From contig JBFRWI010000002.1 of the NCBI GenBank assembly GCA_051439505.1, positions 53,595 to 117,594 on the forward strand: a stretch of 64,000 bases of DNA, written 5' to 3'. The notes below the pieces were generated by a model, which saw only the letters and a list, made by a program, of their open reading frames with translations, did no database searches and was not told the origin of the DNA. Source of the DNA: Hormoscilla sp. (GTDB taxonomy: Bacteria; Cyanobacteriota; Cyanobacteriia; Cyanobacteriales; Desertifilaceae). Below are positions 23,538-53,507 of this stretch, piece after piece (the stretch's first letter is position 1; each line of letters opens with the position of its first letter). The translations under genes and the position numbers were made by a program.

Positions 23538-24728
23538 TTAGGCAGATCTTGACTGAGAGAGGCGTTTTACTTCTTCACCTCCTAGCAACTGATGCGCCTC
23601 TTCTAGTAAAGCAGGGATTTTGTCTCCATGGGGACTATTCGCCAGACATTCGCGCAAGTCCATTTCCCGAACCCGCGAGGCATTATTTCCCGGAAACCAG
23701 TGACCTGCGTTACCCAGCAGATTATAGCGCCCTTTGGCATAGTCAATCATGTCGTAGGCCAGGGCGAGATTCCTCAACCACAGGATAACGGGAATATTGA
23801 TGTTACCAGGCGTGTGATCGCACTCGGGTAATCCCACATGCCAGGTTTTCACCCAATCTTCCCCCAGAGTAGTAATTGCCTCCCGTTCCAACCGCCCTAA
23901 AATCGGCGGCAATATCTCTCCCGCCCGGTCTAATAGGGGCAAAACCTGCAAGTGTTCGTCAAAATCCGTCGGTCGTGCCACCCCCACACTGAGAGTATGT
24001 ACCTGCTTGTGAGAAAGACAAAACAGGTCATTAAACTGCATCGGAAGAAGGGGTTTACATAACTCTAGCAACTTGGGCGGCGGATCGTAAAGTTTCCCCC
24101 CCTTATCGGAAGGACTGATGATGAAAACACCCAGATCGTGACGTTGCGCAGCTTCTATAGCAGGCCAGTTAACTTGATTGATGTAGTACCAGTGGAGATT
24201 CACGTAGTCAAACTGGTCGGTTTCAATAGTTTTGACAATGATGTCCGTCGGACCGTGAGTCGAGAAGCCAATAAACCGCACCTTGCCTTCCTCTTGCAGC
24301 TTCCGGGCCACCTCCAGACAGCCACCCTCTCGGATACTCTCGTGCAGCAACTCCGCCGTATTGATACCTTGCAGGGAGAGCAAATCAACATGGTCCAGCT
24401 TCAGGAAAGCCAGGGACTGCTCGAAATCACGCCGAAACTCGACAGTGTCTGACCGGGGACTAATCTTGGTCTGGACAATTATCTGTTCGCGAGGAAACTG
24501 GGGCAAAAGCTGGCCTAGTTGCATCTCCGATGTGCCATAGATCCTAGCCGTTTCAAAGTGATTGATGCCGACTTCTAAAGACCGACGAATATTTGCTTCC
24601 AGATTGCACTGGTTCTCCTCTGGAATCGAAGATATTAGCACATCCTCCCACTTATATTGATAGCGCATGCCACCGCAGGAGAATACTGGCATAAGTAGTT
24701 CTGTGCGCCCAAATCGTCTGTATTCCAT
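23538..24728 (-). CDS. Aldo/keto reductase (paralog 1)
   Basis: YRRFGRTEL, ETARx[13 protein letters not shown]; near-identical to the adjacent paralog. Confidence 0.88.
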
Positions 24729-24850
24729 GGGTTTTAGTGGGTTGGGTATCAGTTCAATCCTATGTAGTCTGCCCGCTATAGATCGCCAATTTATCTTATA
24801 ATCTTTTGCTCAATTAACAATTGCTCAATTAACAATTGCTCAATTAACAA

Positions 24851-26032
24851 TTACGACTGAGAAAGGCGTTTTACTTCTTCACCTCCTAGCAACTGATGGG
24901 CCTCTTCTAGTAAAGCAGGGATTTTGTCCCCGTGGGGACTATTCGCCAAACATTCGCGCAAGTCCAGTTGCCTCACCCGCGAAGCCTGATTTCCCGGAAA
25001 CCAGTGACCTCCGTTACCCAGCAGGTTATAGCGCTTTTTGGCATAGTCAATCATGTCGTAGGCCAGGGCGAGATTTCTCAACCACAGGATAATGGGAATA
25101 TTTATGTTATCAGGCGTCCGATCGTACTCGGGTAATCCGACATGCCAGGTTTTCACCCAATCTTCCTCCAGAGTAGTAATTGCCTCCTGTTCCAATCGCC
25201 CTAAAATCGGCGGCAATATCTCCTCCGCCCGGTCTAACAGGGGTAAAACCTCCAAATGTTCGTCAAAATCTGTGGGTCGCGCCGCCCCCAAACTGAGAGT
25301 ATGTACCTGCTTGTGAGAAAGACAAAACAGGTCATTAAACTGCATCGGACTAAGGGGTTTACAGAGTTCTACCAACTTGGGCGGCGGCGCGTAAAGTTTG
25401 CCCCCCTTATCGGACGGACTGATGATAAAAACACCCATATCCTGGCGTTCCGCAGCTTCGATCGCAGGCCAGTTAACTTGATTGATGTAGTACCAGTGCA
25501 GATTCACGTAGTCAAACTGGCCAGTCTCAATAGTTTTGACAATAATGTCTGTCGGACCGTGAGTCGAGAAACCAATAAACCGCACCTTGCCTTCGGTTTG
25601 CAGCTTGCGGGCCACATCCAGACAGCCACCCGGTCGGATACTGTCGTGCAGCAACTCATCAGTATTGATACCGTGTAGGGACAGCAAATCGACATAGTCC
25701 AGCTTCAGGAAAGCCAGGGACTGCTCAAACAGACGCAGAAACTCGACTGTGTCTGACTTGGGATAAACCTTGGTCTGGACAATCAGCTGTTCGCGAGGAA
25801 ACTGGGGCAGAATCTTGCCCAGCTGCATCTCCGAGGTGCCATAGTCCCTAGCCGTTTCTATGTGATTGATGCCGACTTCCACAGACCGGCGAATAGTCGC
25901 TTCCAGATTGCGCTGGTTGTCCTGGGGAATCTCCGATGCTGGCAGATCCTGCCACTTGTATTGATAGCGCATACCGCCGCAGGAGAATACTGGTATTTGC
26001 AATTGAGTGCGCCCAAATCGTCTGTATTGCAT
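24851..26032 (-). CDS. Aldo/keto reductase (paralog 2)
   Basis: Same motifs; retains LSLHGIN. Confidence 0.9.
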   Translation of the reverse strand: MQYRRFGRTQLQIPVFSCGGMRYQYKWQDLPASEIPQDNQRNLEATIRRSVEVGINHIETARDYGTSEMQLGKILPQFPREQLIVQTKVYPKSDTVEFLRLFEQSLAFLKLDYVDLLSLHGINTDELLHDSIRPGGCLDVARKLQTEGKVRFIGFSTHGPTDIIVKTIETGQFDYVNLHWYYINQVNWPAIEAAERQDMGVFIISPSDKGGKLYAPPPKLVELCKPLSPMQFNDLFCLSHKQVHTLSLGAARPTDFDEHLEVLPLLDRAEEILPPILGRLEQEAITTLEEDWVKTWHVGLPEYDRTPDNINIPIILWLRNLALAYDMIDYAKKRYNLLGNGGHWFPGNQASRVRQLDLRECLANSPHGDKIPALLEEAHQLLGGEEVKRLSQS

Positions 26033-31240: not shown

Positions 31241-31286
31241 GTAACTACTACTACGAGGATTTGAACCCCCGGCGGGTGAGGTGATA

Positions 31287-32681
31287 ATGACAAATACGCG
31301 CAAAGAAACGGACAGCATGGGGGAAATAGAAGTCCCCGCCGATCGCTATTGGGGGGCCCAAACCCAGCGATCGCTAAAATATTTCTCGATCGGGCAAGAC
31401 AAGATCCCGGCAGAAGTAATTGCGGCCTTCGGGATTCTGAAAAAAGCGGCAGCCCTCAGCAATGCAGAATTGGGTAAACTACCAGAAGAGAAAGCTAAAC
31501 TGATCGTGCAGGCGGCATCGGAAGTAATTGATGGTAAGCTGGATGGTAACTTCCCGTTGCATGTCTGGATGACGGGTAGCGGCACCCAATGTAACATGAA
31601 TGTGAATGAAGTGATCTCGAATCGGGCGATCGAACTGGCGGGGGGAGTAATGGGAAGTAAGAACCCCATTCATCCCAACGATCACGTGAATATGTCTCAA
31701 TCTTCCAACGATACTTTCCCAACGGCGATGCATATTGCTGTCGCAGTGGCATGCGATCGGCGATTGATTCCGAAGGTGAAAAAGATGCGGGACGCCCTGC
31801 AACAAAAGTCGGAAGAATTTGCCGAGATTGTCAAGATCGGTCGCACCCATCTCCAGGATGCCGTACCTCTGACTTTGGGACAGGAATTCTCCGGTTATGT
31901 AGCCCAACTGGATGCTGCTTTGCTGCGGATCGATCGGGTATTGCCGGAACTCTACGAACTGGCGATCGGGGGAACGGCGGTGGGCACGGGATTGAATGCG
32001 ACCAAGGGGTTCGCTGCCACTGCTGTCAAGCACATTAGCAATATTACCGGATTACCCTTTACCGAAGCCCCCAATAAGTTTGCTGCGATCGCGGCCCATG
32101 ATGCGATCGTGATGGCCAGCGGATCCTTGCGGACTCTCGCTGGTGCTTTAATGAAAATTGCCTCCGACATTCGCTTTTTAGCAAGTGGTCCTCGTTGCGG
32201 TTTAGGTGAACTGATCTTACCAGAAAACGAACCCGGTTCTTCGATCATGCCGGGCAAAGTAAACCCCACCCAATGCGAAGCGATGACAATGGTAGCAGCA
32301 CAAATCATGGGCTATGATACCGCAGTGGCGATCGCGGGTTCGTCAGGACATTTCGAGTTAAACACCTATAAACCCATGATGGTGTTTAACGTCATTCAAT
32401 CCATCAATCTGATCGCGGACAGCTGCAACAACTTCACGGATTTTCTGCTAGCGGGACTAAAGCCGAATCGGAAGAAAATCGAGTATTATTTAGAACAGTC
32501 ATTGATGCTAGTGACGGCATTAAGTCCGACCATTGGCTATGACAAAGCTGCCCAAGTGGCGCACTTCGCCCTGGAAAAAGACATGACCTTAAAGCAAGCT
32601 TGTCTGGAATTGGGGTATGTTTCGGAAACGGAGTTCGATCGGATTGTCGTGCCTAGCAAAATGGCCCATCCAGAAATGTAA
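31287..32681 (+). CDS. fumC: Class II fumarate hydratase
   Basis: [32 protein letters not shown]. Confidence 0.97.
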
Positions 32682-32764: not shown

Positions 32765-33241
32765 TCATTCTTGCAATTGAAAAGTGAATATTTCCTCGAT
32801 CGTCATCGAATCAAACCAAGGTTGGCGGACGCGGATAAAGTCTCCACCTTCGGGATCGAAAGACTGGATAAATTGCTTGGTTCCTGCCAGTCCGAGAGCC
32901 TTCCGAAGGGCCTCAATTCCCATTTGCCGAATCTGGGCCTGAGTCAGCTTGCTAGTATCGAGAGCCGTCTCCAACCGGTGATGTGCTAAATCCTTTTGCT
33001 TTTTGCGATCCACCTGTTCCTCTTGCTGCTCTTGCTCTTTGGCTAATTCCACAATTTCCGCCAGGGTAATATCTCCGAGCAGTTGATCCCTATCTCGGGT
33101 ATAATCGCCACTGCCGTTGGAAAATTGATGGATAAATCGCACCATACCCACCGACCCCAGAGCTTGACTTAGAGCTTCTCTTCCCGCTTCCATAATATCT
33201 TCGTGAGTTACCGGGCTAACTTCTATCATTGCTTCTATCAT
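32765..33241 (-). CDS. Putative antitoxin with internally duplicated domain
   Basis: Two copies of I...G.EAL..ALG..G...FI..F....GD(Y/F); overlaps the PIN gene. Confidence 0.65.
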   Translation of the reverse strand: MIEAMIEVSPVTHEDIMEAGREALSQALGSVGMVRFIHQFSNGSGDYTRDRDQLLGDITLAEIVELAKEQEQQEEQVDRKKQKDLAHHRLETALDTSKLTQAQIRQMGIEALRKALGLAGTKQFIQSFDPEGGDFIRVRQPWFDSMTIEEIFTFQLQE

Positions 33242-33683
33242 TGATAACCTCCTCGCTCCACCGAGCCGGGTTCTCTACTCTAACTTTTAGCATAGCGCTA
33301 GACCGAACTGCCAAACGCAACATTCTGTCATCGGTTGTCAGCAATACGTCGGCATTGCCATTTTCGGCACAGGCGATATGTAGAGCATCAAAATATTTAA
33401 ATCCTAGGCCAGCCAATTCCTGCGTTCGGGTGATTATATCATCGCTTAAGGTAACTTTATTTTTCGCTAAACCCGCCCAGAGCATCATTTGCTGTTTTCT
33501 TTCGACCGTAGGGGTCCGAGCTAACTCTATATCAATCGCCGTGCTACCCAACAAGTGCCACTGAGCATTTCGACAACGGTCTATTATGAGTTCTACCGCC
33601 TGCGCTTCCAGACTCACCCGTTCTTGGCTCAGATCGTCAAAAGGCCGATTCAGGCAACAAATATCTAAATAGATTAAAAACAT
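33216..33683 (-). CDS. PIN-domain (VapC-like) toxin
   Basis: IYLDICCLNRPFDD, DALHIACAE, LLTTDD. Confidence 0.85.
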   Translation of the reverse strand: MFLIYLDICCLNRPFDDLSQERVSLEAQAVELIIDRCRNAQWHLLGSTAIDIELARTPTVERKQQMMLWAGLAKNKVTLSDDIITRTQELAGLGFKYFDALHIACAENGNADVLLTTDDRMLRLAVRSSAMLKVRVENPARWSEEVINDRSNDRS

Positions 33684-33868
33684 AATTTTTCCTCCTTAAT
33701 TGATCTTTTCATGATAACATTTTTGAGGTGGCATCGCAGATAGATAAACAATTATTTTCGCTCTCAGGGTATTTATACCCATATTTTTTGATCCTGAATG
33801 CTATAACTTGTGGCTTCACAGAAAGGTATTGATGTTATACTAGAAATAAACCCCTAATTTTTGCACTC

Positions 33869-34447
33869 ATGGTATATTTACAATCGCCTCTGGAATTAGA
33901 ACTGCAACTCACGGACGAGCAATTTTTTGAGCTTTGTCAAAAGCATCGTAATTTGAAATTTGAGCGCAATGCAACTGGAGATTTAATCATTATGTCACCA
34001 ACTGGAGGAATAACTAGCGATCGCAACTCGGATATTAATTTTCAACTCAGGGCCTGGAATCGCGATCGAAAGCTGGGAAAAGTTTTTGAATCATCCGGCG
34101 GATTTAAGTTACCCAATGGGGCCGATCGCTCTCTCGATGCTTCTTGGGTGAAACTGCAACGCTGGAATGCTTTAACATTAGAACAGCAGGCCAAATTAGT
34201 ACCCTTATGCCCTGATTTTGTGGTGGAATTGCGCTCTCCTTCCGATGCCTTAAGTAAGGTGCAGCAAAAGATGAATGAATACATAGAAAATGGGGCAGAA
34301 TTGGGATGGTTGATAGACCCCAAACGGCAAGTCGTGGAGGTTTATAGGCCCTCACAGGATGCGGAAGTGTTGCAGTCGCCCAAGACTGTATCGGGAGAAG
34401 CGGTACTACCGGGCTTTGTTTTGGACTTGACGGAAATTTTCTCTTAG
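33869..34447 (+). CDS. Uma2/DUF820 family endonuclease
   Basis: FERNATGDLIIMSP, CPDFVVELRSPSD, LGWLIDP. Confidence 0.92.
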   Translation: MVYLQSPLELELQLTDEQFFELCQKHRNLKFERNATGDLIIMSPTGGITSDRNSDINFQLRAWNRDRKLGKVFESSGGFKLPNGADRSLDASWVKLQRWNALTLEQQAKLVPLCPDFVVELRSPSDALSKVQQKMNEYIENGAELGWLIDPKRQVVEVYRPSQDAEVLQSPKTVSGEAVLPGFVLDLTEIFS

Positions 34448-34551
34448 GCGATCTGAAGAAAGTTGCCCGGTTTTCGAGATATATTTATCTCCCGATCGAG
34501 CGGAGAACGATAGTTTGAATTCTGTTATTGCTTTGCTTTCCAATCTGGCAA

Positions 34552-34777
34552 GGGGTCTTGTCTGGACCCCTACTTGTTCCCAACCACAACGGCATGTTAT
34601 GCTAAGATTAGCAGCTAAGCCATGTTCATGTTTGCGCGACTTATATCAACAAGTTATTCTATAATTACAAGAAATTAAGGCATCGGAACCAAACGGAACC
34701 GGTGCCGAGGAGACAAACTGTACAGTACCGGTGATACCTGTATAATTCACTTACCCTTGACAAGCAATGAAGATAAA
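34552..34777 (+). repeat. 39-bp core (34552-34590) plus arm C; direct repeat of 38776-39009
   Basis: Near-identical to 38776-39009 apart from a few substitutions and an 8-nt indel. Confidence 0.92.
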
Positions 34778-34841
34778 TATGATGTTGATGAATAAATCAA
34801 GTTAAAATAGTATTGTACTCTCGCATTGCTGTCCAGGAACT

Positions 34842-35909
34842 ATGAAAGCAGAGCTTGTTAAGAGGTTGTTTAGGGCGATCGCTAGTGGAGACCAAGAGGC
34901 GATCGACAAACTCACGTACATAGTAATTTCAGAAGAGCGTAAGAAGGGACACACATTGTTAGCCGATCAGTTAGAAAATATTACTAAGCACCAGTCAAAG
35001 TCAAATGGTTCCCAAAGGGTACCACAGACAGAGCGATCGCTGCGGGAAAAATCGGATAAAAGCGCCTGTAGCACGACTAAACCTGCGATGGAAGAACAGG
35101 CGTTCCCGCCTATTCTACAGGATCTAAGCACCCTGCCAACAAATAAGCGATTTGATTTTCCTCTAATTACGATCGTACCTCCAGAGAAATTACGGCATCA
35201 TATGGTGCTGCCGGAGAAAATTGAGAAACGTTTCCGGCGAATTGAACGGGAGTATGCTGCCAGAGATAGGTTAGCTCATTATGGCTTGCGCTACAGACAA
35301 AAAATTCTTTTGTACGGTCCTCCGGGCTGTGGTAAAACCTTAGGAGCTGAACGTTTAGCTTGGCACACCGGTTTACCGATGGTCAAGGTGCGATTTGATG
35401 CCATAGTGTCGTCTTTTTTGGGGGAGACGGCAAGTAATTTGAGCGTCGTGTTTGAAAAAGTGGACAAGATGGACTGCTTGTTGTTTCTGGATGAATGTGA
35501 CTCCCTGGCTAAGTCACGGTCAGACCCCCAGGAAGTTGGTGAAATTAAGCGTGTGGTGAATACTTTTCTGCAACTACTTGACGATTACTCCCCATCTTCT
35601 GGTATGATAGTGGCAGCCACTAACCTCAACGAGTCCCTCGATCGGGCTCTGTGGAGGCGATTTGATGATTTAATTGAAGTGCCACTACCGGGAGAGCAAG
35701 AACTGCGGTTGATTTTGTCAGAAAAATTCTCGACAGTGGAAGTAGGTGCGATCGACTGGTCGCGGATAATTGCGCAAATGAGTGGCTTCTCTGCTGCTCA
35801 AGCAGAAAAAGTAGCTCAAGATGCCGCGAAACGCGCTATTCTAGATCGAGAAGAACTCGTAATTCAGCCACATCTAGAAGAGGCGATCGCCGAAATCAAG
35901 GTTGTTTAG
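34842..35909 (+). CDS. ietA: AAA+ ATPase, IetA-like
   Basis: GPPGCGKT, LFLDECD, AATN, RRFD; N-terminal EERKKGHTLLADQL; directly upstream of an S8 protease. Confidence 0.8.
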   Translation: MKAELVKRLFRAIASGDQEAIDKLTYIVISEERKKGHTLLADQLENITKHQSKSNGSQRVPQTERSLREKSDKSACSTTKPAMEEQAFPPILQDLSTLPTNKRFDFPLITIVPPEKLRHHMVLPEKIEKRFRRIEREYAARDRLAHYGLRYRQKILLYGPPGCGKTLGAERLAWHTGLPMVKVRFDAIVSSFLGETASNLSVVFEKVDKMDCLLFLDECDSLAKSRSDPQEVGEIKRVVNTFLQLLDDYSPSSGMIVAATNLNESLDRALWRRFDDLIEVPLPGEQELRLILSEKFSTVEVGAIDWSRIIAQMSGFSAAQAEKVAQDAAKRAILDREELVIQPHLEEAIAEIKVV

Positions 35910-35930
35910 GAAAATTCCGAGGAGAATAAA

Positions 35931-38516
35931 ATGGTTGAACGTTATGAAATGTTTCCACATATTCAGCTTAGGCAGACAGCCGAGGGCACTGCTGTATCGA
36001 CCGGAGGATCGAGAAGGAAAAATTCTCGCACAGAGTGGAATAAGAGTAACCGAGGGGAACATGGCAGTAGGCTGAAGGGTGTCGCTGACTCTATAGTTGC
36101 TGACTGGGAAAATGTCCAAGATCAACGGCAAGAAGAAGGAAAACCCCTACTTGAAGCTAGGCGTCTTACCTTACTGACAGATCCTGAATCTTTCGATCCA
36201 GATAAGCTAAAAGCTTATGGCATTGAGGTAATTTTAGAATTAGAAAATGGGTATATAATCGGAGCGTCAGCAGATTTAGAACTGACTAAGTTGCAAGAAA
36301 AGATCGAGAAATTCATCAATGATGAGCGAGGAGGAGGTAATGTTGCTGAAGTTTGGGAGCTAATTGATGGAATTAAAAGCCCGGAGTTTATTCTGTCTCC
36401 TGAATTATGGGAGCATTGGGATAAAGTTAATGACGAACAGATATACAATATTGATGTAGGAATTGCCTGTTTAGGACTTCAATCTAAGCTTTCCGACCCT
36501 CCAGTTAGAGAACCAGATGAAAGTGATGATAAATACGCAAAAAGACTTAAAACATGGAGCGATAAACGCGATCTACAATATCAAGAGTGGGATGAACTAG
36601 CTATGGCAAGAGAAAATGAATTGGAAGAGTTGATCTCTAATTATAACGGAAATTTACTTAGTTTAGAGGAAGATCGGATTCCAGAGTCTGCCAAGTTACC
36701 AGATAGTTTTTCCTGTCGCATACAAATTTCAGGTAAGGGGTTAAAAGACTTAGTTTATAACTTTCCCTATATTTTTGATGTCAGCAAACCCGATCAGTTT
36801 GCCGAACTCGTGCAACCGCAAGGTTTATCTGATGGTGAAGACCCCTCTTTTCAGCTAGAACCACCTGGCCCAAATGCTCCCAAGGTCTGTGTTATTGATA
36901 GTGGGATTCAGGAAAGACATCCTCTTCTGAAAGCAGCAATTGATTCAGAGAACTCACGATCTTGGTTGCCTGGAAATCAACAAACTGCTGATTATGTTGA
37001 AAATGGTGGACATGGAACCAGGGTCGCTGGGGCGGTACTTTATCCTCGGACTATACCTCGGAGTGGGAAGCAACCAGCTATTTGCTGGATTCAAAATGCG
37101 AGAGTCCTTAATGATAACTGCAAACTACCTGAAAATCTATTTCCCCCTAATATGTTGGGGGAGATTGTAGAGTTATATAAAGGAACGAGAATATTTAATC
37201 ATTCTATTACCGGAGCGCTTCCATGTCGCACCCAATACATGAGTGCTTGGGCAGCGGCGATCGATCAACTGACGTGGCAAAAGGATATTCTCTTGATTGT
37301 GGCGGCTGGTAACTTGCCTTTATACAGTAGAATTGGTCCAACCCGATTATCTATTCCAGAACATCTGGCAGCAAATCGACCTTATCCAGATTATCTTTTA
37401 AAGGCAGGGTGCCGAATTGCGAACCCGGCACAAAGTTTCCAAGCTTTAACGGTGGGATCGATTGCTCATAATTCTTATTATGCCCGGCCTTATTCTTCAA
37501 TAGCGCAGAAAGATATGCCTTCAGCCTTCTCCTGCTCGGGATTGGGAATTTGGGATACGATCAAGCCAGAAGTTGTTGAATATGGGGGCGATCTGGTAAA
37601 GGATGAGAGTGTACCACCTAACCTTACTTACCATGAAAGCATTTGTCCTGAATTAGTGCGATCGACATTAAACGGTGGTCATGCAATTGCCTCGGACCAA
37701 GTAGGAACCTCATTTGCAGCGCCAAAAGTCAGCCATATTGCAGCTCGTCTCGCCTCTGAGTTACCTGATGAAAGTTGTCTTTTGTACCGCGCCTTAATAG
37801 TTCAGTCAGCACGCTGGCCAGAATGGACAATGGCAGATAATGTGGATCAACTGCATGTATTGCGTCAAATAGGTTATGGTATTCCCAATATTGAACGCTG
37901 TTTAGCCAATTATTCCAATCGGATCACGATGATTACTACAGGAGAACGCCGAATTAAAGCTCGACAAGCTCAGATTTACGAAGTAAAACTACCTAATTCA
38001 TTGCGTTCTCAAGGAGATGAGTTAGAGATTTTAGTGGAAGTTACCCTGTCATACAAAGCTCAACCCCGTCGAACCAGACGACATCGACGCAAATATCTTT
38101 CAACTTGGCTTGACTGGGATTGTAGCAAGAGAGGAGAAGACCCCGAAAGCTTTCTTTCCCGACTTTTGCAAGAACATGACGCCCCAGAAAATGCGGATCC
38201 AGGAGAAAGTATTTTCAAGTGGACCCTGGGAAAGCAAAAGAATTACGGAATAATTAAAGATGTTTCTCGGGGTGCAGGAACTATTCAGAAGGATTGGACT
38301 GTTGTCAAGTCATTTGAACTGCGAGAATCTTTCTGCATTGCAGTGGTTGGACATCAAGGTTGGAACAACGATCCGGATGCTAGCGTTCCCTATTCTCTAG
38401 TTGTTAGCTTTGAAGCGATCCAAGCTAATGTACCAATTTATCAGGAAATATCCTCAGCTCAAGTACAGATGGAAGTTGTCGATCGGGTAGAAATTAAATC
38501 CACAGGGAGGATATGA
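35931..38516 (+). CDS. ietS: S8 subtilisin-like serine peptidase, IetS-like
   Basis: Triad VIDSG / GHGTRVAG / GTSFAAP, oxyanion AAGN; no signal peptide. Confidence 0.8.
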   Translation: MVERYEMFPHIQLRQTAEGTAVSTGGSRRKNSRTEWNKSNRGEHGSRLKGVADSIVADWENVQDQRQEEGKPLLEARRLTLLTDPESFDPDKLKAYGIEVILELENGYIIGASADLELTKLQEKIEKFINDERGGGNVAEVWELIDGIKSPEFILSPELWEHWDKVNDEQIYNIDVGIACLGLQSKLSDPPVREPDESDDKYAKRLKTWSDKRDLQYQEWDELAMARENELEELISNYNGNLLSLEEDRIPESAKLPDSFSCRIQISGKGLKDLVYNFPYIFDVSKPDQFAELVQPQGLSDGEDPSFQLEPPGPNAPKVCVIDSGIQERHPLLKAAIDSENSRSWLPGNQQTADYVENGGHGTRVAGAVLYPRTIPRSGKQPAICWIQNARVLNDNCKLPENLFPPNMLGEIVELYKGTRIFNHSITGALPCRTQYMSAWAAAIDQLTWQKDILLIVAAGNLPLYSRIGPTRLSIPEHLAANRPYPDYLLKAGCRIANPAQSFQALTVGSIAHNSYYARPYSSIAQKDMPSAFSCSGLGIWDTIKPEVVEYGGDLVKDESVPPNLTYHESICPELVRSTLNGGHAIASDQVGTSFAAPKVSHIAARLASELPDESCLLYRALIVQSARWPEWTMADNVDQLHVLRQIGYGIPNIERCLANYSNRITMITTGERRIKARQAQIYEVKLPNSLRSQGDELEILVEVTLSYKAQPRRTRRHRRKYLSTWLDWDCSKRGEDPESFLSRLLQEHDAPENADPGESIFKWTLGKQKNYGIIKDVSRGAGTIQKDWTVVKSFELRESFCIAVVGHQGWNNDPDASVPYSLVVSFEAIQANVPIYQEISSAQVQMEVVDRVEIKSTGRI

Positions 38517-38712
38517 GGCGATCGCGCGCTCCGGTGCTGACTTAAGGCGCGAACTTGCATGACAGTTATAAACAGCGCTCAAAAACGGGCGATCGCTTCT
38601 AGATCATCGGTCAAGTAGAATAGAAACCGGGTTTCTCGTGATAGCAGCAACGAGAAATCAATGATTTTACCAGAGAAACCCGGTTTCTTGACCGACGTTC
38701 TCGCCATTGCCA

Positions 38713-39009
38713 GTTTTTCGACCTGCTCGCAATTTCAATATTGGATATTCTAGCATGAAAGCTGGGCCAGCGATCGGGGTCTTGCCTGGACCCAGACTTG
38801 CCCCCAACCACAACGGCATGTTATGCTAAGATTAGCAGCTAAGCCATGTTCATGTTTGCGCGACTTCTATCAACAAGTTATTCTATAATTACAAGAAATT
38901 AAGGCATCGGAACCAAACGGAACCGGTGCCGAGGAGATAAACTGTACAGTACCGGTGTCTACCTCATACCTGCATAATTCACTTACCCTTGACAAGCAAT
39001 GAAGATAAA
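38713..39009 (+). repeat. Composite junction: arm A (38713-38775), core (38776-38814), arm C (38815-39009)
   Basis: Left part repeats at 40383-40484; right part repeats at 34552-34777. Confidence 0.92.
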
Positions 39010-39025
39010 ATTTGAATTTTTTGAT

Positions 39026-40285
39026 ATGGATTCTCTCAAATTTATTCGCATCCGGCAAAATTGCAGTCAACCTGAGTTAACAGATATTCCCGATGCCATT
39101 AAAACGGGAATTCAACAGTTAGCCCCGGGAAAATTCATTCAACCAGGACAAACAGTCGCGATCGCAGTTGGCAGTCGAGGGATTGCCAATTTAGCCCAAA
39201 TTGTTCAGACCATTGGACATGAATTGATCGCTTTGGGGGCACATCCTTTTATTGTCCCAGCAATGGGGTCTCATGGAGGGGGAACAGCGGCAGGACAAGC
39301 GGCAGTTTTGGCGAGTTATGGCATTACAGAAGCGGCGATCGCGATTCCGGTTCGTTCATCAATGGATGTGGTCAAAATTGGCACTACTGATTTAGGCATT
39401 CCCGTGTTGTGCGATCGCCTTGCCAGTGAAGCCGATCGGCTAGTAATTGTCAATAGAATTAAGCCTCATACTCACTTTAGCGGGGAAATCGAAAGTGGGC
39501 TATTAAAAATGATGACCGTGGGGTTAGGAAAACATCGCGGTGCCCAGATTTATCATCGCGCTTTTCAACAATATTCTTATTACCAAATGATTCGCGATGT
39601 GGGCAAAGTCATTTTGGCAAAAATGCCGATCGCCTTTGGGGTGGCTATCTTAGAAAATAGCGCTCATCAAACCGCTGAAATTGCGATCGTTCCTGCCGCT
39701 GAGATTGAAACCCAAGAACCGCAACTATTAACAAAAGCCAAAGCCTGGTGTCCGCAACTTCCGTTTCCAGATAGCGATATTCTGATTATTGACGAAATAG
39801 GTAAAGATATTAGTGGGGCGGGTTTAGATCCGAATGTCACTGGACAAAAAGAAATTTTAATCGGCAAGCATCACCGCAAAAAAGTCAAACTCCCGAAAAT
39901 ATTTGTGCGTGATTTAACCCCCGCTACCGAAGGAAATGCCATTGGAGTCGGCTTGGCGGATTTTACCACCACCAGACTGGTGAATAAAATTAATTTTCAC
40001 AAAACCTATACCAATGCGATCGCAGCCCAAGATATCCGGGTGGCCAAAATTCCCATCCATTTCGAGAGCGATCGAGAAGTGTTAACCGCGATTTTTTCAT
40101 TATTAGGAATTGAAGAACCCCAACGGGCAAAGATGATCTGGATTAAAAATACCCTTGACTTGTCTGAAATCGAAGTTTCTCCGGCTTACCAGGATGCGAT
40201 CGGCTATTATCATGATTTATCTCCATTAACGGAACCTCGTAATATTCCCTTTGATGCTGATGGTAATTTACCAGATTTTTGCTAG
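39026..40285 (+). CDS. Lactate racemase (LarA)-like / DUF2088-DUF362 domain protein
   Basis: VAIAVGSRGI, PAMGSHGG, NRIKPHT, ESGLLKM..VGLGK; start moved to MDSLKF because the ATG at 38999 lies inside the repeat. Confidence 0.75.
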   Translation: MDSLKFIRIRQNCSQPELTDIPDAIKTGIQQLAPGKFIQPGQTVAIAVGSRGIANLAQIVQTIGHELIALGAHPFIVPAMGSHGGGTAAGQAAVLASYGITEAAIAIPVRSSMDVVKIGTTDLGIPVLCDRLASEADRLVIVNRIKPHTHFSGEIESGLLKMMTVGLGKHRGAQIYHRAFQQYSYYQMIRDVGKVILAKMPIAFGVAILENSAHQTAEIAIVPAAEIETQEPQLLTKAKAWCPQLPFPDSDILIIDEIGKDISGAGLDPNVTGQKEILIGKHHRKKVKLPKIFVRDLTPATEGNAIGVGLADFTTTRLVNKINFHKTYTNAIAAQDIRVAKIPIHFESDREVLTAIFSLLGIEEPQRAKMIWIKNTLDLSEIEVSPAYQDAIGYYHDLSPLTEPRNIPFDADGNLPDFC

Positions 40286-40382
40286 TATGGTCTCCTGCAC
40301 CCGATTAAAGACCCTCATCTCCCAACCAGTGAACAGAAAGAGACTTTTTCCACAGTGGGGGTAAATCCCAGCCATTGTACCG

Positions 40383-40484
40383 GTTTTTAGACCTGCTCGC
40401 AATTTCAATATTGGATATTCTAGCATGAAAGCTGGGCCAGCGATCGGGGTCTTGTCTCGACCCAGACTTGTCCCCAACCACAAC
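40383..40484 (+). repeat. Arm A plus 39-bp core; direct repeat of 38713-38814
   Basis: 102-bp near-identical direct repeat at offset 1670. Confidence 0.92.
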
Positions 40485-40500
40485 CACGGGGCACCCTCGA

Positions 40501-42390
40501 TTAACCATCTTCCTTAGCAGGCATGATTTGCTTGGCCGCTGGTTTATATGAGGGTTGGAGGGCCGGATCGTATGTACCTTTGACATAATTAATCTTGAAT
40601 TCTTCCAGCCAATCAACTAACAGGGCTTCAATTTCGTCGATCGTCTCCCCCTGCTGGAGTTCCGATCGCAGGGTGTTAATTAAATTCCCCACTAACCGTT
40701 CTTTGAGTTTATCTGCTGCGGGGTCTGGTATTTTGGTTTGACTGCCGATGTAGGCTTTCTGGGGACTCTGGGCGATCGCCTTAGAAATTTGCCCGACCAA
40801 ATTATCAGCAATTTGGTTAGGCAAGCGCCCTAACAGGGGCAGACGCTGAAGTTGCTTATAGATGGCTGTCTGGTGCATCGCTTTTTTCACCTGATACTCA
40901 AGGAAGGCTTGCAAATCTGCATGGACTTCGGGAAGCACTTTGCAAGTAGTGATTTGCAGCAGACGACTAGAGATCGCCTGCATTTCATCAGTATCGTTAA
41001 TATCTATATAGCTTCGCTTGGGTTTCTGGTCGCGCTTCAGGACTGCCCGCTTGATGCTACCACTCCTGACAGACCCCTGGAGTTGGTCTATACCTCGACT
41101 AATCACAGTTTGGGTGATTTCTTGAGCGTAATTAGCAATCAAGCCCACTCCGATGCGGTTTCTAATTTGCTCCAGACTGGGCAATTTCGCTCGTTCCAGA
41201 CGAATCACTGCTGTGATTATCCGCAGTAATGGCACCCAAGGTTGTAGCAAAAATAGATCGTACCAGCGCTGTTTCATTGCCGACCACCAACTTATATGGC
41301 TGCGGCGCGCGATCGCCCCCGTCCGCAGCAGGAACCATACCCAAAACAGCACGAGCCAAGGCAAGTCAAGCAGCCAAAATCTATCGATATATTCGTTATT
41401 GTATCCCATATGGCGATAGTAAATCTGGCGCATTAACCCCTGAATCTCCCGTTCAAAAAACGCCAACTCTTTTTGCCATCCTGCTGTCTCCAAGTTCTTG
41501 CGAGTCCAAAAGCTATTAAATGCTTGTTTAGATGATTTTTCTGCCCAGAGTACTTCCGGAGCCAGATATTCTAATACACCCAAGGAGTCTAGCAATTCGA
41601 TGCGCTCGGTTAATTTGACCTCGCTCTTGGGTTCGCGCTCGTAGATATGTTGCTTCATCCGGTCTTTGATCAGTGACATTGTACCAGTCTGTTGGGATAA
41701 CTGAAAATAATCACTGTCAAGCAGTTTGTTGCTGCGATCGCGCAGTTCCTGAAGCAAAGTATCTACCTCGGGATCTGACATTCCCTGTTCTGCTAATATT
41801 GCTTTCAGCTTGGCTACTTTTTTGAGATATCCTGTTGTATCGCGATAGGGTTCAATCCCCTTAATAAAATCATAGTTTAAACCGGGCTCGTTAAACAAGA
41901 ACAAAAAGCGAATTTCCCGATTAAAGAAAGCTAACTGACTCTGCCATCCTTTGGCTACTAAATACTCCCGACTCCAAAAAATCTCTACAGCTTGTTTAGC
42001 ATCTTCTGTGCCAACCGAAGATGCGAACTTTTGTCTGATTGTTGCTAAACTTCCCTTGCTGTCTGTCACTTCAAATGGAGGATCCTCGAACAATATCTCG
42101 ATGCTTTTTTGGCGCAACTCCTGTAGTAATACTTCCACTTTTGGCAATTGTAAGCCACCTTTTTTTAACTCCTGTTCTAGGGCGGCTACCGTTTTCACAT
42201 AGTCCTTTTGGCGAGTCTGACGCGATCGAGTCCAGTAGCTTTGGGCCCGCAGATAAACTGGACGGGCTTTCACATAAGTGAGGTCAAACACCACTAAGCC
42301 TACATTGACTAAGATTACCAGTGCCATGACCCGATCGACTAACAGTCCTAAGCGCGATCTTTTGGGGGAAGTTGATTTTTCTAATGACAT
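40501..42390 (-). CDS. Hypothetical membrane protein
   Basis: 629-aa ORF, N-terminal TM, RWYDLFLLQP segment, internal repeat (FW.R..L...GWQ..LAFF.REI twice). Confidence 0.75.
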   Translation of the reverse strand: MSLEKSTSPKRSRLGLLVDRVMALVILVNVGLVVFDLTYVKARPVYLRAQSYWTRSRQTRQKDYVKTVAALEQELKKGGLQLPKVEVLLQELRQKSIEILFEDPPFEVTDSKGSLATIRQKFASSVGTEDAKQAVEIFWSREYLVAKGWQSQLAFFNREIRFLFLFNEPGLNYDFIKGIEPYRDTTGYLKKVAKLKAILAEQGMSDPEVDTLLQELRDRSNKLLDSDYFQLSQQTGTMSLIKDRMKQHIYEREPKSEVKLTERIELLDSLGVLEYLAPEVLWAEKSSKQAFNSFWTRKNLETAGWQKELAFFEREIQGLMRQIYYRHMGYNNEYIDRFWLLDLPWLVLFWVWFLLRTGAIARRSHISWWSAMKQRWYDLFLLQPWVPLLRIITAVIRLERAKLPSLEQIRNRIGVGLIANYAQEITQTVISRGIDQLQGSVRSGSIKRAVLKRDQKPKRSYIDINDTDEMQAISSRLLQITTCKVLPEVHADLQAFLEYQVKKAMHQTAIYKQLQRLPLLGRLPNQIADNLVGQISKAIAQSPQKAYIGSQTKIPDPAADKLKERLVGNLINTLRSELQQGETIDEIEALLVDWLEEFKINYVKGTYDPALQPSYKPAAKQIMPAKEDG

Positions 42391-42591
42391 GATTCCAAAT
42401 TTGTGCAGTATTTACAACAAAGCTAAGAGTCTTGGGATAAATCTCAACTGGAGACTGTACCATATATTTTTCCCTCTTTTTTATGATTATAGCATAGTAA
42501 TTCCGACAGGTAAAATCTTCGATCTCTACAGTCGGTTTTAACCGACTTGAGCTATTAGCCGGGGGTTTGAACCCCCGGCGGGCTACCGGAA

Positions 42592-44229
<1,638 letters not shown>

Positions 44230-44277
44230 TTAGCGGTGATGCAATACTGGGCGATGGGTGCGGCTCATTTGTAGTTG

Positions 44278-44362
44278 ATCCCGGGATCCCCCCCAAACCC
44301 CCCCTTGCGAAAGGGGGGGCTGTCTTCGCCCCCCTTTGATCGGGGGGTTTGGGGGGATCCGA
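44278..44362. repeat. GC-rich palindromic REP-like element
   Basis: GGATCCCCCCAAACCCCCC...GGGGGGTTTGGGGGGATCC. Confidence 0.75.
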
Positions 44363-44739
44363 CGACTGGGAGGGCCCGTGAACTATCAACGGGTTTTGAC
44401 CACACCCCTGGGCGATCGGCATTTCCAGGCGTGAGGCCGGGAAATGCTAACTGCCTGGAATTATCTTACCTGCACGGTAGAACGTCGAGCAAGTTGGCGT
44501 TCGGGTCGCGAGAGGACCAGAAACCGGGTTTCTGCGGTGATTTTCGCCTTGCCACCGAGATTTTCCCAGAAACCCGGTACGAGACTTCCACCCCGATCGC
44601 CTCCCGAGCGCGAGAGGACCAGAAACCGGGTTTCTGCCGATATTTTAGCTTTCCCACCGAGATTTTCCCAGAAACCCGGTTTCTCAAATTCCACGCCGAT
44701 CGCCCGCCTTTTATGGCAAACTCTGCGATCGCGCTCCGG

Positions 44740-45483
44740 TTAACCGATCGCCCGATCGAGCAAGGGAAGTGCCCAGGCGAGGATGACACTTATAGCTAAA
44801 CCCACAACTGCCTTGATACCATCTTTTAATATTATCTTCCCTGTTTCATTGAGCGATCGCTGCCCGAAGGCGATCGTCATGGCCAGTTCCCGTCCGGCCA
44901 ACAGTCCCAGAAACGCCCAGGTTGTACTCATGGGAATCTTGCTTAATTCCTTAAAAAAGAATAAAATTAACCCATAGATAAAATCCACAAATGTAGCAGA
45001 GCGAATATCCTGGGTATTAGTTTTGCTAGTGACTATTTTCTGGATTTCCCCGCCATTACGGTAGAAGATAATTCCGTGCAAAGCAAGCATCACCAACAGG
45101 GAAAATAACAGCCATGCTGCACTCATCTGCCTGGGCAGGTAGGCAAAGATATTTGCCAAATCCTGTATCAACCATTGACTCGACAGGAATGCCGTTGACA
45201 ACCACTGCAAAACCACCCAGTATAGCGGCGGTTCCGAGTTAGCGGTAGCCAGGAAATCCTTTTCCAATTTTTTTGTTAACCCCTTGTAAACAATAATCCC
45301 GACTAGACATGCTACTACATAACCCAGCAGTGATTTGAGTAGCATACTGTCTAATGCTTGGGGGGCAAAAACTGTTAAGATGAGGAAAGTCGTGCTGACG
45401 GGAATTCCGAAATTAGTTAACAGCAAAAGCACCAGAGGCGGAACTAGATAAATCCAGGTAAAGGGTGTCGGAAAGGGAATAAG
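44740..45483 (-). pseudogene. 5'-truncated duplicate of the membrane-protein gene 47429-48376
   Basis: 744 bp nearly identical to 47429-48172; first ~68 codons missing, with a REP repeat in their place. Confidence 0.85.
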
Positions 45484-45663
45484 GCGCGGCACTGTTGGGT
45501 TTCGCTAGCGCTCTACCCAACCTACGCGCTCGATCTTTTTTATTATGGTTAATCATATAGTCGCATCTGTAGATTGGGTTGAGGCACGAAACCCAACAAG
45601 GCGCGGCACTGTTGGGTTTCGCTAGCGCTCTACCCAACCTACGCGCTCGATCTTTTTTATTAT
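45481..45663. repeat. Two direct copies of a REP-like GTAGGTTGGGT...ACCCAAC unit
   Basis: 66-bp units at 45481 and 45598; same family at ~22570-22746 and 47298-47375. Confidence 0.85.
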
Positions 45664-45675
45664 AGATGAGATCCT

Positions 45676-46155
45676 ATGATAACAGTAAAACAGAGAACAA
45701 CATTGAACCCAGACAAGCTTCCGGACTTCCAGCAGTGGAAAAAAGTCAACGATGATGACTTTTCCCTCTGGGACTATCTGTTTGGAGTCGCTAATGTGGA
45801 ACTTGCCATCGCTTTCACGAAACTATTCTGGCCCGATACGATCGAGCATGAAGGTGGTATATTTTTATCATCAGGGTTCGATATCCAGATCTACGAACAG
45901 TGGAAAGCCAAGCTAGGAAACGACATTACCTCAATAGAGCAGGTAATCAACCATCAGCACATAGATGACATGCTCCCAGCTGCCGAGGCCGTAGGTACGT
46001 AAAATCTCCTTTATCTGGGAAAGGCGATCTCTCAAATGTGGGAAAGTCGTCTGAAACTACTGTATCCCCAGCGTCGCTTTGAAGTCAACTATCATCAAGG
46101 GGAACAGAGTCGGGTCGTTGTCACCTTCCACCAAGTACGAGAGAACTGTTGCTGA
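45676..46155 (+). pseudogene. Hypothetical protein interrupted by an in-frame TAA at 46000-46002
   Basis: Frame continues NLLYLGKAISQMWESRLKLLYPQRRFEV...VVVTFHQ to TGA at 46155. Confidence 0.65.
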
Positions 46156-46303
46156 GAAGATGGCAAAGGACGATCTCTTTTCTCTAGTCCCCTTTTTATT
46201 ATCACCTGTAACAGGATATCGCCGATCTGCTGTCGAGCCTCTGTTATTGACAAACGCGATCGGTCTAATGTAAGATAGGAGTAGATGTCTGCGGATAAGG
46301 CAA

Positions 46304-46528
46304 ATGTTAGAATTACTGGCAAGAATCACAGTTAATCCTCGACAATGTGGAGGTCGTCCCTGTATTCGGGGGATGAGAATTCGTGTATCTGATGTACTGG
46401 ACTTATTTGCAGCAGGTCTGAGTGCCGAACAAATCTTAGCAGAAATGCCCGACCTGGAAATGGAGGATCTGCAAGCGGCACTTGCTTATGCTGCACGTAA
46501 ACTCAATCATCCAGTTTTGGTAGCATGA
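46304..46528 (+). CDS. DUF433 antitoxin (VapB45-like)
   Basis: RITVNPRQCGGRPCIRGMRIRV; TTGACA-N18-TAAGAT promoter-like sequence at 46247-46276. Confidence 0.9.
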   Translation: MLELLARITVNPRQCGGRPCIRGMRIRVSDVLDLFAAGLSAEQILAEMPDLEMEDLQAALAYAARKLNHPVLVA

Positions 46529-46863
46529 TTATCTGGGTAGATGCACAACTATCCCCTGCAATTGCCACCTGGATGACTAATACATTCGGGGTAACCGCAG
46601 TAGGATTGCGAGATGTCGGACTTAGAGATGCTGAGGATATTGAGATTTTTGAGGCCGCTAAGGCCCAAGGAGCGATTATCATGACCAAAGACAGAGATTT
46701 TGTTGATTTGGTCGATCGCCTGGGTCCGCCACCCCAAATTATCTGGTTGACGAGTGGGAATACATCAAATTATAGGTTGTGCTCAATCCTGAGTGCAACT
46801 TTGCAAGAAGCTCTGGAACTTCTGCGATCGGGCGAAGCATTAGTAGAGATTAGCGGAGATTAG
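46525..46863 (+). CDS. DUF5615 PIN-like toxin (VapC45-like)
   Basis: IWVDAQLSP, DIEIF, IMTKDRDF; ATGA overlap with the DUF433 gene. Confidence 0.88.
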   Translation: MIIWVDAQLSPAIATWMTNTFGVTAVGLRDVGLRDAEDIEIFEAAKAQGAIIMTKDRDFVDLVDRLGPPPQIIWLTSGNTSNYRLCSILSATLQEALELLRSGEALVEISGD

Positions 46864-46979
46864 TCGTTATATCAGTCCCTTCCTCGTTCCCTGCCGGAGT
46901 CAGAGAACGCCCCTTTTGAGGCTCTGCCTCCCGGGAATAAAGGGAGGCAGGAGCCTCCAAATACCCGTTCCCAGCTCGA

Positions 46980-47248
46980 TCGCGTCTATCGGGCGTATAG
47001 CCACCGCCCAAAGTGGAAACCATTTTCAGCCAAGGTTTTCTGTCCAAGTCGTGACGATACATGACCGTGTAGACATCGCTTCCGAGGCTTTTGTCCTGTC
47101 GAAGTTGGCAATAAAAGCGGCTGCTGCGACTGACTAAGAGTCCGCCATTAAAGAAAGAGTAAACCCCAGCCCCCGCTGCTGCCAGCAAAGCAATTCCCGT
47201 TGCTACCACAAATGGGTTAAGTCCGTTTCTTGAGCTTTTGGTACTCAT
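46980..47248 (-). pseudogene. Truncated COP23-like protein fragment
   Basis: TM, then RFYCQL...YTVMYR...PWLKMVSTLGGGYTPDRR; breaks off into a palindromic repeat (GGGAGGCAGAGCCTC) at a HIP1-like junction. Confidence 0.55.
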
Positions 47249-47428
47249 AAGTATCTGGTAGGTGTATCGCAAATACTATTATTATAAGCAATAAAGCTGT
47301 AGGTTGGGTTGTCGCTTGTTACCCAACCCATACCGCAGCAACAGGTTGGGTTTCGTACCTCAACCCAACCTACAGCTCGAACAATCTCGGATTGCCATTA
47401 ACAATCAACAATTCACAATTCCTACTTA

Positions 47429-48376
47429 TTAACCGATCGCCCGCTCTATAAAGGGAAGTGCCCAGGCGAGGATAACACTTATAGCTAAACCCACAACTGC
47501 TTTGAGACCATCTTTTAAGATTATCTGTCCGGTTTCATTGAGCGATCGCTGCCCGAAGGCGATCGTCATGGCCAGTTCCCGTCCGGCCAACAGTCCCAGA
47601 AACGCCCAGGTTGTACTCATGGGAATCTTGCTTAATTCCTTGAAAAAGAATAAAATTAACCCATAGATAAAATCCACAAATGTAGCCGATCGAATATCCT
47701 GGGTATTAGTTTTGCTAGTAACTATTTTCTGGATTTCCCCGCCATTACGGTAGAAGATAATTCCGTGCAAAGCCAGCATCACCAACAGGGAAAATAACAG
47801 CCATGCTGCACTCATCTGCCTGGGCAGGTAGGCAAATATATTTGCCAAATCCTGTATCAACCATTGACTCCACAGGAATGCCGTTGACAACCACTGCAAA
47901 ACCACCCAGTATAGCGGCGGGTCCGAGTTAGCGGTAGCCAGGAAATCCTTTTCCAAATTTTGGGTTAACCCCTTGTAAACAATAATCCCGACTATAAATG
48001 CTACTACATAACCCAGCAGTGATTTGAGTAGCATACTGTCTAATGCTTGGGGGGCAAAAACTGTTAAAATGAGGAAAGTCGTGCTGACCGGAATTCCAAA
48101 ATTAGTTAACAGCAAAAGCACCAGAGGCGGAACTAGATAAATCCAGGTAAATGGTGTCGGAAAGGGAATAAGTTCCAGGCGTCCGTAAGACAGGTCGCCA
48201 GCGAACCAGCCAATCAGAAAAACTGCGGTCAAAACTGAGCAGGCAAAAAGCCACAGCACCCACCAGGGACGCTGTGAGTTGGAACTTAAAAATGTTCCCA
48301 AGGTTTGAATGGCGTCGTTTGCTACTATAGAATAGGATGCCATCAGGAATCCCGCGATCGCCAATACATAGTTCAT
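47429..48376 (-). CDS. Multi-pass membrane protein (possibly PiT/PHO4-like fold)
   Basis: ANDAIQTLGTF, GIPVSTT and IPMSTTW resemble PiT signature repeats; highly hydrophobic. Confidence 0.7.
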   Translation of the reverse strand: MNYVLAIAGFLMASYSIVANDAIQTLGTFLSSNSQRPWWVLWLFACSVLTAVFLIGWFAGDLSYGRLELIPFPTPFTWIYLVPPLVLLLLTNFGIPVSTTFLILTVFAPQALDSMLLKSLLGYVVAFIVGIIVYKGLTQNLEKDFLATANSDPPLYWVVLQWLSTAFLWSQWLIQDLANIFAYLPRQMSAAWLLFSLLVMLALHGIIFYRNGGEIQKIVTSKTNTQDIRSATFVDFIYGLILFFFKELSKIPMSTTWAFLGLLAGRELAMTIAFGQRSLNETGQIILKDGLKAVVGLAISVILAWALPFIERAIG

Positions 48377-53414: not shown

Positions 53415-53507
53415 TTTATGCTCTTCTATTCTCGATTTACTATATGGGAAAGAGCAAAACAAAATGGTATAGTATCATAAAAATTGCATTTAATGGGGTA
53501 GACGAGA

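Follow-up and report, generated by a model that had tools for sequence, protein, structure and literature searches.

A 64,000-nucleotide stretch of Hormoscilla sp. DNA (the window; G000:C2:53595-117594, to which all coordinates given without a contig label refer) carries, between positions 34552 and 40495, a tandem array in which three copies of a 39-bp core are separated by arms, here called A and C, and by two sets of cargo genes. Cargo 1 is the pair IetA/IetS (PADLOC E 3.5e-77 and 1.9e-60), and cargo 2 is a Lar_N protein (Pfam E 2.6e-9) whose gene is referred to as larA-like. The origin of the array involves sufU, our own label for a 159-aa NifU_N/SufU gene (NifU_N, Pfam E 6.8e-27) 45 kb away on the same contig. 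G000, the genome under study, is a 6.47-Mb assembly of 232 contigs, ~93% complete, and was compared with four congeners (G001, G002, G003 and G004; five genomes of the genus in all). It appears to come from a HIP1-rich cyanobacterium: psbA is present, as are 6476 sites of the HIP1 word (GCGATCGC), about one per kb. The parts of the array are as follows.

34552..34590, plus strand: core 1, old sequence upstream of the genus sufU promoter; its GGG start is the tail of the HIP1-like site of arm A
34591..34705, plus strand: sufU-derived part of arm C1; promoter-like TGnTAAGAT, leader, a deletion, then decayed sufU codons
34709..34777, plus strand: second part of arm C1; ietA cassette leader, which is unbroken up to ietA in G002
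34842..35909, plus strand: cargo 1, ietA-like AAA ATPase (Pfam, PADLOC)
35931..38516, plus strand: cargo 1, ietS-like S8 peptidase (Pfam, PADLOC)
38623..38692, no strand assigned: inverted doublet between ietS and arm A, seen in the sequence and taken by us to be of the repetitive extragenic palindrome (REP) kind
38703..38775, plus strand: arm A2, ending in HIP1-like GCGATCGG
38776..38814, plus strand: core 2, 33 bp of it identical to the G004 copy
38815..39009, plus strand: arm C2, a duplicate of C1 with a sufU start fragment (38855-38929) and the ietA leader
39026..40285, plus strand: cargo 2, LarA-like (Lar_N) gene (Pfam), with a leader of its own of only ~16 bp
40371..40445, plus strand: arm A3 (blastn)
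40446..40484, plus strand: core 3 (blastn)
40485..40495, plus strand: tail of core 3, which leads straight into the sufU promoter in G004 and is cut here by a rearrangement junction

Much of the geometry proposed by the initial annotation was confirmed. The three cores lie in direct orientation at 34552-34590, 38776-38814 and 40446-40484, with identities of 34/39, 36/39 and 35/39; arm A precedes cores 2 and 3 only (64/66 identical, 38710-38775 vs 40380-40445, the match extending to ~73 bp with one gap); and the enclosed cargos, IetA/IetS and the Lar_N protein, are unrelated. Arm C does follow cores 1 and 2, the core and arm together aligning over 234 columns at 93%, but it is not confined to them, since a blastn search of the same genome returned a third, diverged match 45 kb off, at the start of sufU (C2:43065-42989, minus strand). 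The repeats measure 114 and 234 bp, and sufU is their sole other match in the genome. Neither the core nor arm A has a further copy in the assembly (blastn), and at E values of 1e-7 to 1e-98 the repeats are not a product of chance. The two units span 4.2 and 1.67 kb and contain AAA, S8 and Lar_N as their only Pfam domains.

The junctions were compared with Logan read contigs from four runs (X1 to X4), all from one study and one of them possibly from the source sample. The left junction of core 1 was bridged by contigs of X1 and X3, the right junction of core 3 by a contig of X1, and the joint between arm A and core 2 by X4, in all three cases without differences, and depth was roughly even in X1 and X2. 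Among the joints listed for the four read sets, in contigs that drop rare forms, none skipped a unit and none was that of an excised circle. An Rfam scan of 33500-43000 gave no known RNA and a single sub-threshold match outside the array, folding of six junction pieces from the window was no better than that of shuffled sequences in all six (z -0.4 to +1.0), and a promoter scan was uninformative (11 sites vs 11.0 expected).

Arm C is host-gene DNA, consisting of a decayed sufU leader and ~25 codons, followed by the leader of ietA. Compared with the sufU start of the same genome it is 83-84% identical over 77 bp, with the leader in addition. In arm C1, ~40 bp that included the start codon have been deleted, and the ~25 decayed codons follow (34631-34705, 83% identical to the genome's own sufU). 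The second part of the arm runs on into ietA in G002. The arm is therefore the start of sufU joined to a cargo leader and not the end of an element.

The same relationship is visible across the genus. When the junction was used as a query against 60 relatives, it matched in all four congeners and weakly in one other genome, in sufU. In each of the four congeners an array lies directly upstream of intact sufU, and G002, G003 and G004 share the order first sufU fragment, ietA, ietS, second sufU fragment, a RusA-like and AHJR-like pair, and intact sufU. The first fragment runs to ~nt 91 of the gene and the second, in these three genomes, to a HIP1 site at nt 205-212; the outer fragment, farthest from the gene, is the more decayed one. 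To the left of the array stands fumC in G001, G002 and G004, the G003 contig ending before this gene is reached. G001 has lost the first sufU fragment and ietA. G002 contains a 525-bp copy, 99.8% identical to sufU and its upstream DNA, with GH31 genes before the copy, and in G004 the start of ietA is separately duplicated, at 98.8% identity, around a 165-aa open reading frame (ORF), so that duplication at this locus has been recurrent and variable in length. A collapsed relic of a HEC-01-like cassette lies in front of the first sufU fragment in G002 and G004. The copies are also mosaics: the C arms share 34/34 bp with the second fragment of G003, core 2 shares 33/33 with G004, and the tail of core 3 follows G004, a pattern of alleles that fits DNA exchange between strains. 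At 29 sufU loci of other genera no duplicated sufU fragment was found within 1.5 kb upstream (two loci had shorter flanks). Small insertions interrupt the sufU gene of G001 and the second fragments (L027, L032), one of 22 bp ending in a HIP1-like word and one a 27-bp hairpin, and the sufU frame of G001 looks broken.

These comparisons bear on the mechanism first proposed, in which non-autonomous mini-elements with common, att-like ends were mobilised by a recombinase in trans and left an attL/attP/attR footprint 17 bp past the stop of gene 40501-42390. The array is not supported as an att-site element family, and the core edges are not crossover points, for their position varies from strain to strain, and G002 no longer has a core at all; the second sufU fragments also stand without it. 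Core 3 continues for a further 11 bp that are repeat-derived (10/11 matching G004), and with this tail leads into the sufU promoter in G004, cores 1 and 2 having a shortened version. The GGGGTC start is present only in G000, G004 and G001 reading otherwise, and the GGGTC/GACCC hairpin that had been seen in the core is not conserved, its GGGGTC arm being missing from both congener copies (folding z +1.43 for the G004 copy; the G001 copy folds otherwise, z -1.88). Since the GGG is the tail of the arm A HIP1-like site, arm A once preceded core 1 too, and its remainder has been lost in front. The joints are specific to each cargo: the HEC-01-like cassette, a gene pair, splits the arm A2 counterpart in G001, the RusA pair follows the HIP1 site inside sufU, and the larA-like gene follows the ietA leader. 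The idea of exchangeable cargo at one site thus survives, as congeners hold other cargo among the same repeats (the HEC-01-like pair, the RusA-like and AHJR-like pair, GH31 genes and the 165-aa ORF), and that of common element ends does not. A single-core empty site, which the initial annotation had named as possible support, was found neither in the four congeners nor among the listed joints of the four read sets.

The supposed target beyond gene 40501-42390 is likewise the outcome of a later event. Beside sufU, G000 retains the AHJR-like gene and what is left of the second fragment, and the rest of the array is 45 kb away. Parts of gene 40501-42390 in G001, G002 and G003 adjoin pgm rather than fumC-sufU, which makes the right-hand junction a rearrangement and not a target site; the target is the 5' end of sufU. 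A single simple inversion that split the array from sufU was considered and rejected, as the gene order of G002 requires more than one rearrangement. About 50 bp from the sufU-side breakpoint (C2:44005) lies the end of an element resembling a miniature inverted-repeat transposable element (MITE). Such elements are ~140 bp long with inverted ends GGGTGTGGTCAAAA and variable interiors (an example lies at window ~44271-44407), and their end motif has 569 matches in G000 vs ~10 expected. Motifs similar to the REP-like doublet recur nearby, near window 44500-44680. Gene 40501-42390 itself is truncated at differing points in the congeners, and in G002 and G003 a Uma2-like gene is flanked by two copies of the sequence upstream of pgm (L034, L035, L039, L041; the equivalent of window 42418-42503). 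The neighbours of the array in the window are these.

31281..32681, plus strand: gene that from its translation we take to be fumC; conserved as the array's left anchor in G001, G002 and G004
32765..34447, no strand assigned: accessory genes of the same interval (158-aa ORF, PIN protein, Uma2)
40501..42390, minus strand: right-hand neighbour gene, brought in by rearrangement

No integrase was found beside the arms in any of the five genomes, all of them incomplete assemblies. The tyrosine recombinase family PF00589 gave no match in G000, G001, G002 or G004, the control having matched in 14/14 reference genomes, S. elongatus included; G003 has two matches, both on one contig. PF02371 (IS110) was not found in G000 and was found in the four congeners, and PF04986 (HUH) was found in none of the five genomes, but its control likewise had no match. 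ORF lists show no integrase-sized frame in any of the five arrays, and no attC box occurs on either strand of three junction zones. Resolvase-domain genes gave nine matches in G000, none in arrays. A single, housekeeping-like 425-aa large serine recombinase (PF07508; L191:907-2181, G000:C94) is not near arrays; it is 94-96% identical across G000, G002 and G004 and apparently broken in G001 and G003, where the open frames are 210 and 122 aa. ComEC is present in all five genomes.

The cargo genes have histories of their own. The larA-like gene probably starts at 39026, as close homologues begin MDSLK. It was not found in 400 other genomes of the phylum or by a DNA search of G001-G005; among genome loci the best 80 relatives are 38-54% identical, and none bears a cyanobacterial name. 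Two close homologues have 85-86% identity and four HIP1 sites lie within the 1260 bp of the gene, so that it probably arrived by way of another HIP1-rich cyanobacterium. None of 26 metagenome loci with ietA relatives has the core, arm A or sufU, so these arms are not the travelling ends of ietAS; eight of the loci share only the leader of ietA itself and one a REP-like doublet, and their neighbours include tkt and groEL. In other genomes ietAS was observed directly downstream of tkt or groEL (L165, L170, L171, L189, L174, L176), with no integrase-sized neighbour noticed. The core pattern had no match in metagenome or viral contigs, and the junction none in plasmid and phage collections.

To see how far the layout extends, G000 was searched against itself for local, low-copy direct repeats (>=60 bp, >=80% identity, 250-20,000 bp apart). 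This gave 174 pairs, or 154 once intragenic and contig-edge pairs were removed, and 86 of these 154 (repeats of 61-433 bp) enclose an ORF without being gene-gene paralogues. They make up to 67 loci, the sufU array included, of which only 10 share sequence with another locus, mostly REP/MITE motifs. Pfam searches of 50 chosen ORFs and the recombinase identified the ends of psbA, cobS, thiC, phzF and NAPRTase genes as anchors, and toxin-antitoxin (TA) and metabolic genes as cargo (DUF433, UPF0175/DUF3368, PIN, YhaV, Uma2, XisI, LRR and methyltransferase among the domains). A search of the four congeners for six of the loci gave matches for five, each of them single-copy in at least one congener, and none for locus C217. 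At cobS and phzF the single-copy allele, that of G002, has two clean flanks; at thiC the left flanks in congeners differ.

Of the repeat ends, 28/308 have HIP1 within 10 bp, compared with 71/2137 flank windows (3.3%) and 37/924 interior windows (4.0%), an enrichment of ~2.5-fold at the repeat ends, which are not fully independent of one another; a tighter test gave 24/288 ends (p 0.0005). In the 23 pairs that are >=93% identical, 3/46 ends have exact HIP1 (p 0.24) and 8/46 a one-mismatch form (p 0.043). At cobS and phzF the duplication begins at HIP1. The end of the second sufU fragment falls within HIP1, and in G001, G003 and G004 its start lies just after another, and arm A ends in a 7/8 HIP1 match within which core 1 begins. 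Joints favour HIP1 without requiring it, and only a minority have it.

Other duplications were also seen. A second reiterated 5'-end stack stands at L218 (G000:C72:39500-49600), where nadA/nadB-like and PALP genes are interspersed with three copies of the 5' region of NAPRTase. Within the window, at 44740-48376, the 3' part of a membrane-protein gene is duplicated (744 bp, 96%) with small accessory ORFs between the copies; the layout is that of the array, and one end is by a HIP1-like word. Whole-gene tandem paralogue pairs occur at 23538-26032 and 51804-55109, presumably aldo/keto reductase-like and mechanosensitive-channel-like, respectively, and a 421-aa ORF at 20934-22199 is, judging from its translation, presumably an IscB-like HNH protein.

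Taken together, we consider it probable that the cargo stack grew by insertion with long target duplication, through RecA-type recombination on the start of sufU combined with microhomology and without a dedicated recombinase; both the dependence on RecA and insertion as the direction of the events are what we infer. In a first step, incoming DNA or a sister chromosome with cargo next to a sufU start would recombine at sufU, while its other end would join by short homology, sometimes at a HIP1-like site. The product would be the old promoter with a sufU stub, the cargo, and a new promoter with whole sufU, so that sufU would survive and the cargo might be read from the stranded promoter. Once repeats were present, unequal crossing-over would copy units or pop them out; in G000 this would have duplicated core-C-ietAS-A, the second ietAS then being replaced by the larA-like gene. 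A later rearrangement, with the MITE end ~50 bp from one breakpoint, would have moved the array off sufU. This last step and the loss of arm A before core 1 would together account for the attL/attP/attR look.

Insertion with long target duplication was reportedly described by Nobusato et al. (2000). In the accessible text of Furuta, Abe and Kobayashi 2010 (PMC2853133) the process is defined for restriction-modification (RM) genes, with repeats >30 bp and no mobile genes; a Microcystis case is listed, and most cases are placed in competent species. As in that account, the repeats here are long, direct, variable in length and unique to their locus (>30 bp), the cargo is <20 kb and lacks a mobility gene, and a relative has a single-copy allele, here at other G000 loci rather than sufU. 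The cargo is not RM: IetAS, HEC-01-like, RusA-like, TA and metabolic genes take that place, and the duplicated promoter and 5' end, the reiteration at one site, the dozens of loci and the HIP1 bias also set the present case apart from what that text describes. Homology-facilitated illegitimate recombination and transformation-induced tandem duplication, as described for pneumococcus, Acinetobacter and Pseudomonas in the available portions of PMC2884548 and PMC3784515, similarly combine one homologous anchor with an illegitimate joint, unequal crossing-over between repeats and competent cells, whereas 60-430 bp duplications in cyanobacteria by that route are only putative. Among systems with dedicated enzymes, an integron or cluster of attC sites lacking an integrase (CALIN) resembles the array in being an integrase-less row of unrelated, partly defensive cargo, and the larA-like gene is nearly leaderless; yet the junctions lack RYYYAAC and GTTRRRY boxes as well as a stable hairpin, and the repeats derive from sufU. 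Non-autonomous elements of the IS200/IS605 or IS91 type differ in their conserved subterminal hairpin, and those of the IS110 family in their 2-bp core, compared with repeats of 39-234 bp, and in the family domain, which was not found in G000.

Several other explanations were weighed. It is improbable that the stack consists of decayed integrative elements at the sufU 5' end, comparable to cis-mobilizable elements (CIMEs), whose integrase was lost or supplied by a visitor and whose att sites, after tandem insertion, were blurred by decay. In the accessible text on CIMEs and on elements that are integrative and conjugative (ICEs) or integrative and mobilizable (IMEs) (PMC7563491), on SXT/R391, which targets the prfC 5' end (PMC2791158), and on tycheposon arrays at tRNAs (bioRxiv 10.1101/2020.12.28.424599), tandem units likewise stand by a host gene with partial target copies between them and the oldest farthest away. 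The sufU stack, with its most decayed fragment farthest out and the gene start restored, speaks for this reading, and a stack of this kind is also expected from long target duplication; the shared end point of the first fragment in G000, G002, G003 and G004 probably reflects one inherited event. CIMEs are moreover by definition without recombination genes in the part of PMC7563491 that was available. These families, as the same texts describe them, nevertheless have short att sites with one fixed crossover and, within the family, a cognate integrase, whereas in the sufU array no one conserved crossover core marks the unit boundaries: the two fragments end at different sufU positions (~nt 91 vs nt 205-212), cargo junctions differ, and G002 has no core. 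By ORF lists the five arrays lack an integrase-sized frame, and PF00589 was not found in four of the five genomes; the 29 loci of other genera, within 1.5 kb upstream (shorter flanks at two), like the metagenome, viral, plasmid and phage collections, offered no counterpart; and dozens of unrelated genes show this arrangement too, without sharing sequence.

It is quite unlikely that the joints were made at HIP1 by a host recombinase such as the 425-aa large serine recombinase, with cargo circles or tandem duplications then integrated by RecA. The HIP1 or near-HIP1 ends of the second sufU fragment, arm A, core 1, cobS and phzF, the excess at repeat ends over flank and interior controls and the conservation of the enzyme in G000, G002 and G004 all speak for it. 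In the accessible text of PMC13756078 a 'recombinase family protein' tracks HIP1 abundance, for which the 425-aa gene is a candidate of only putative orthology, and HIP1 is linked to site-specific recombination in that of PMC4390886. Only 8-17% of ends have HIP1, however, and exact HIP1 is at just 3/46 ends in the youngest pairs; among passive microhomologies, too, an 8-bp word that occurs once per kb is the commonest, conserved motifs may bias where alignments end, and the recombinase is apparently broken in two of the five genomes. A broader version, in which a genus-wide, integrase-free gene capture would proceed through HIP1 joints, the serine recombinase would close circles carrying a piece of a housekeeping gene, and the circles would enter at that gene, is equally a long shot.

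DDE transposases acting on the abundant MITE or insertion sequence (IS) elements might produce adjacent duplications and rearrangements that mimic cassettes, but this is very improbable as the origin of the stack. With 569 end matches in G000, one of them near the sufU-side breakpoint, with MITE ends at 2/23 high-identity repeat pairs and with ORFs in the G001 interval that we take to be IS-like, such activity may be behind the later separation from sufU; none of the junctions within 34552-40495 has a MITE end. That a fragmented metagenome-assembled genome generated the array as an artefact, an outcome the initial annotation had allowed for, is scarcely credible: the assembly has 232 contigs and no read contig spans the whole array, but three junctions are bridged, depth is roughly even in X1 and X2, copies differ by 4-13%, and congeners have the same kind of array.

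Several observations weigh against long target duplication at sufU. Much the same picture would be left by old integrase scars that later recombination had blurred, and a recombinase gene could be unassembled, given that G000 is ~93% complete and in 232 contigs. A cargo-free fumC-sufU allele was not found, all four congeners being filled, and the direction of events, insertion or pop-out, cannot be read from the single-copy alleles at other loci. The larA-like junctions are without HIP1. The 67 loci are an upper, uncurated figure that may include integron arrays and pseudogene paralogues; 20 regions were hand-picked from them, six of which were those compared in congeners.

In the literature searched, with most subscription journals and supplements outside the search, single cases were found, namely the Microcystis RM insert in PMC2853133 and a Microcystis TA pair between 152-bp repeats in the accessible text of PMC7935541, and no genome-wide account in cyanobacteria. 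The sufU stack, which keeps several rounds visible across five genomes, provides a worked example of the way in which a genus nearly without tyrosine recombinases gathers genes for defence and metabolism, with the ends of host genes duplicated around them at as many as 67 loci of a single genome. The catalogue of repeat ends offers a direct test of the long-open question of whether HIP1 is an active recombination site or simply the commonest microhomology. If capture through HIP1 and the recombinase were true, any gene end, here the sufU promoter, would become an integron-like platform, and HIP1 and the orphan recombinase would gain a joint function.

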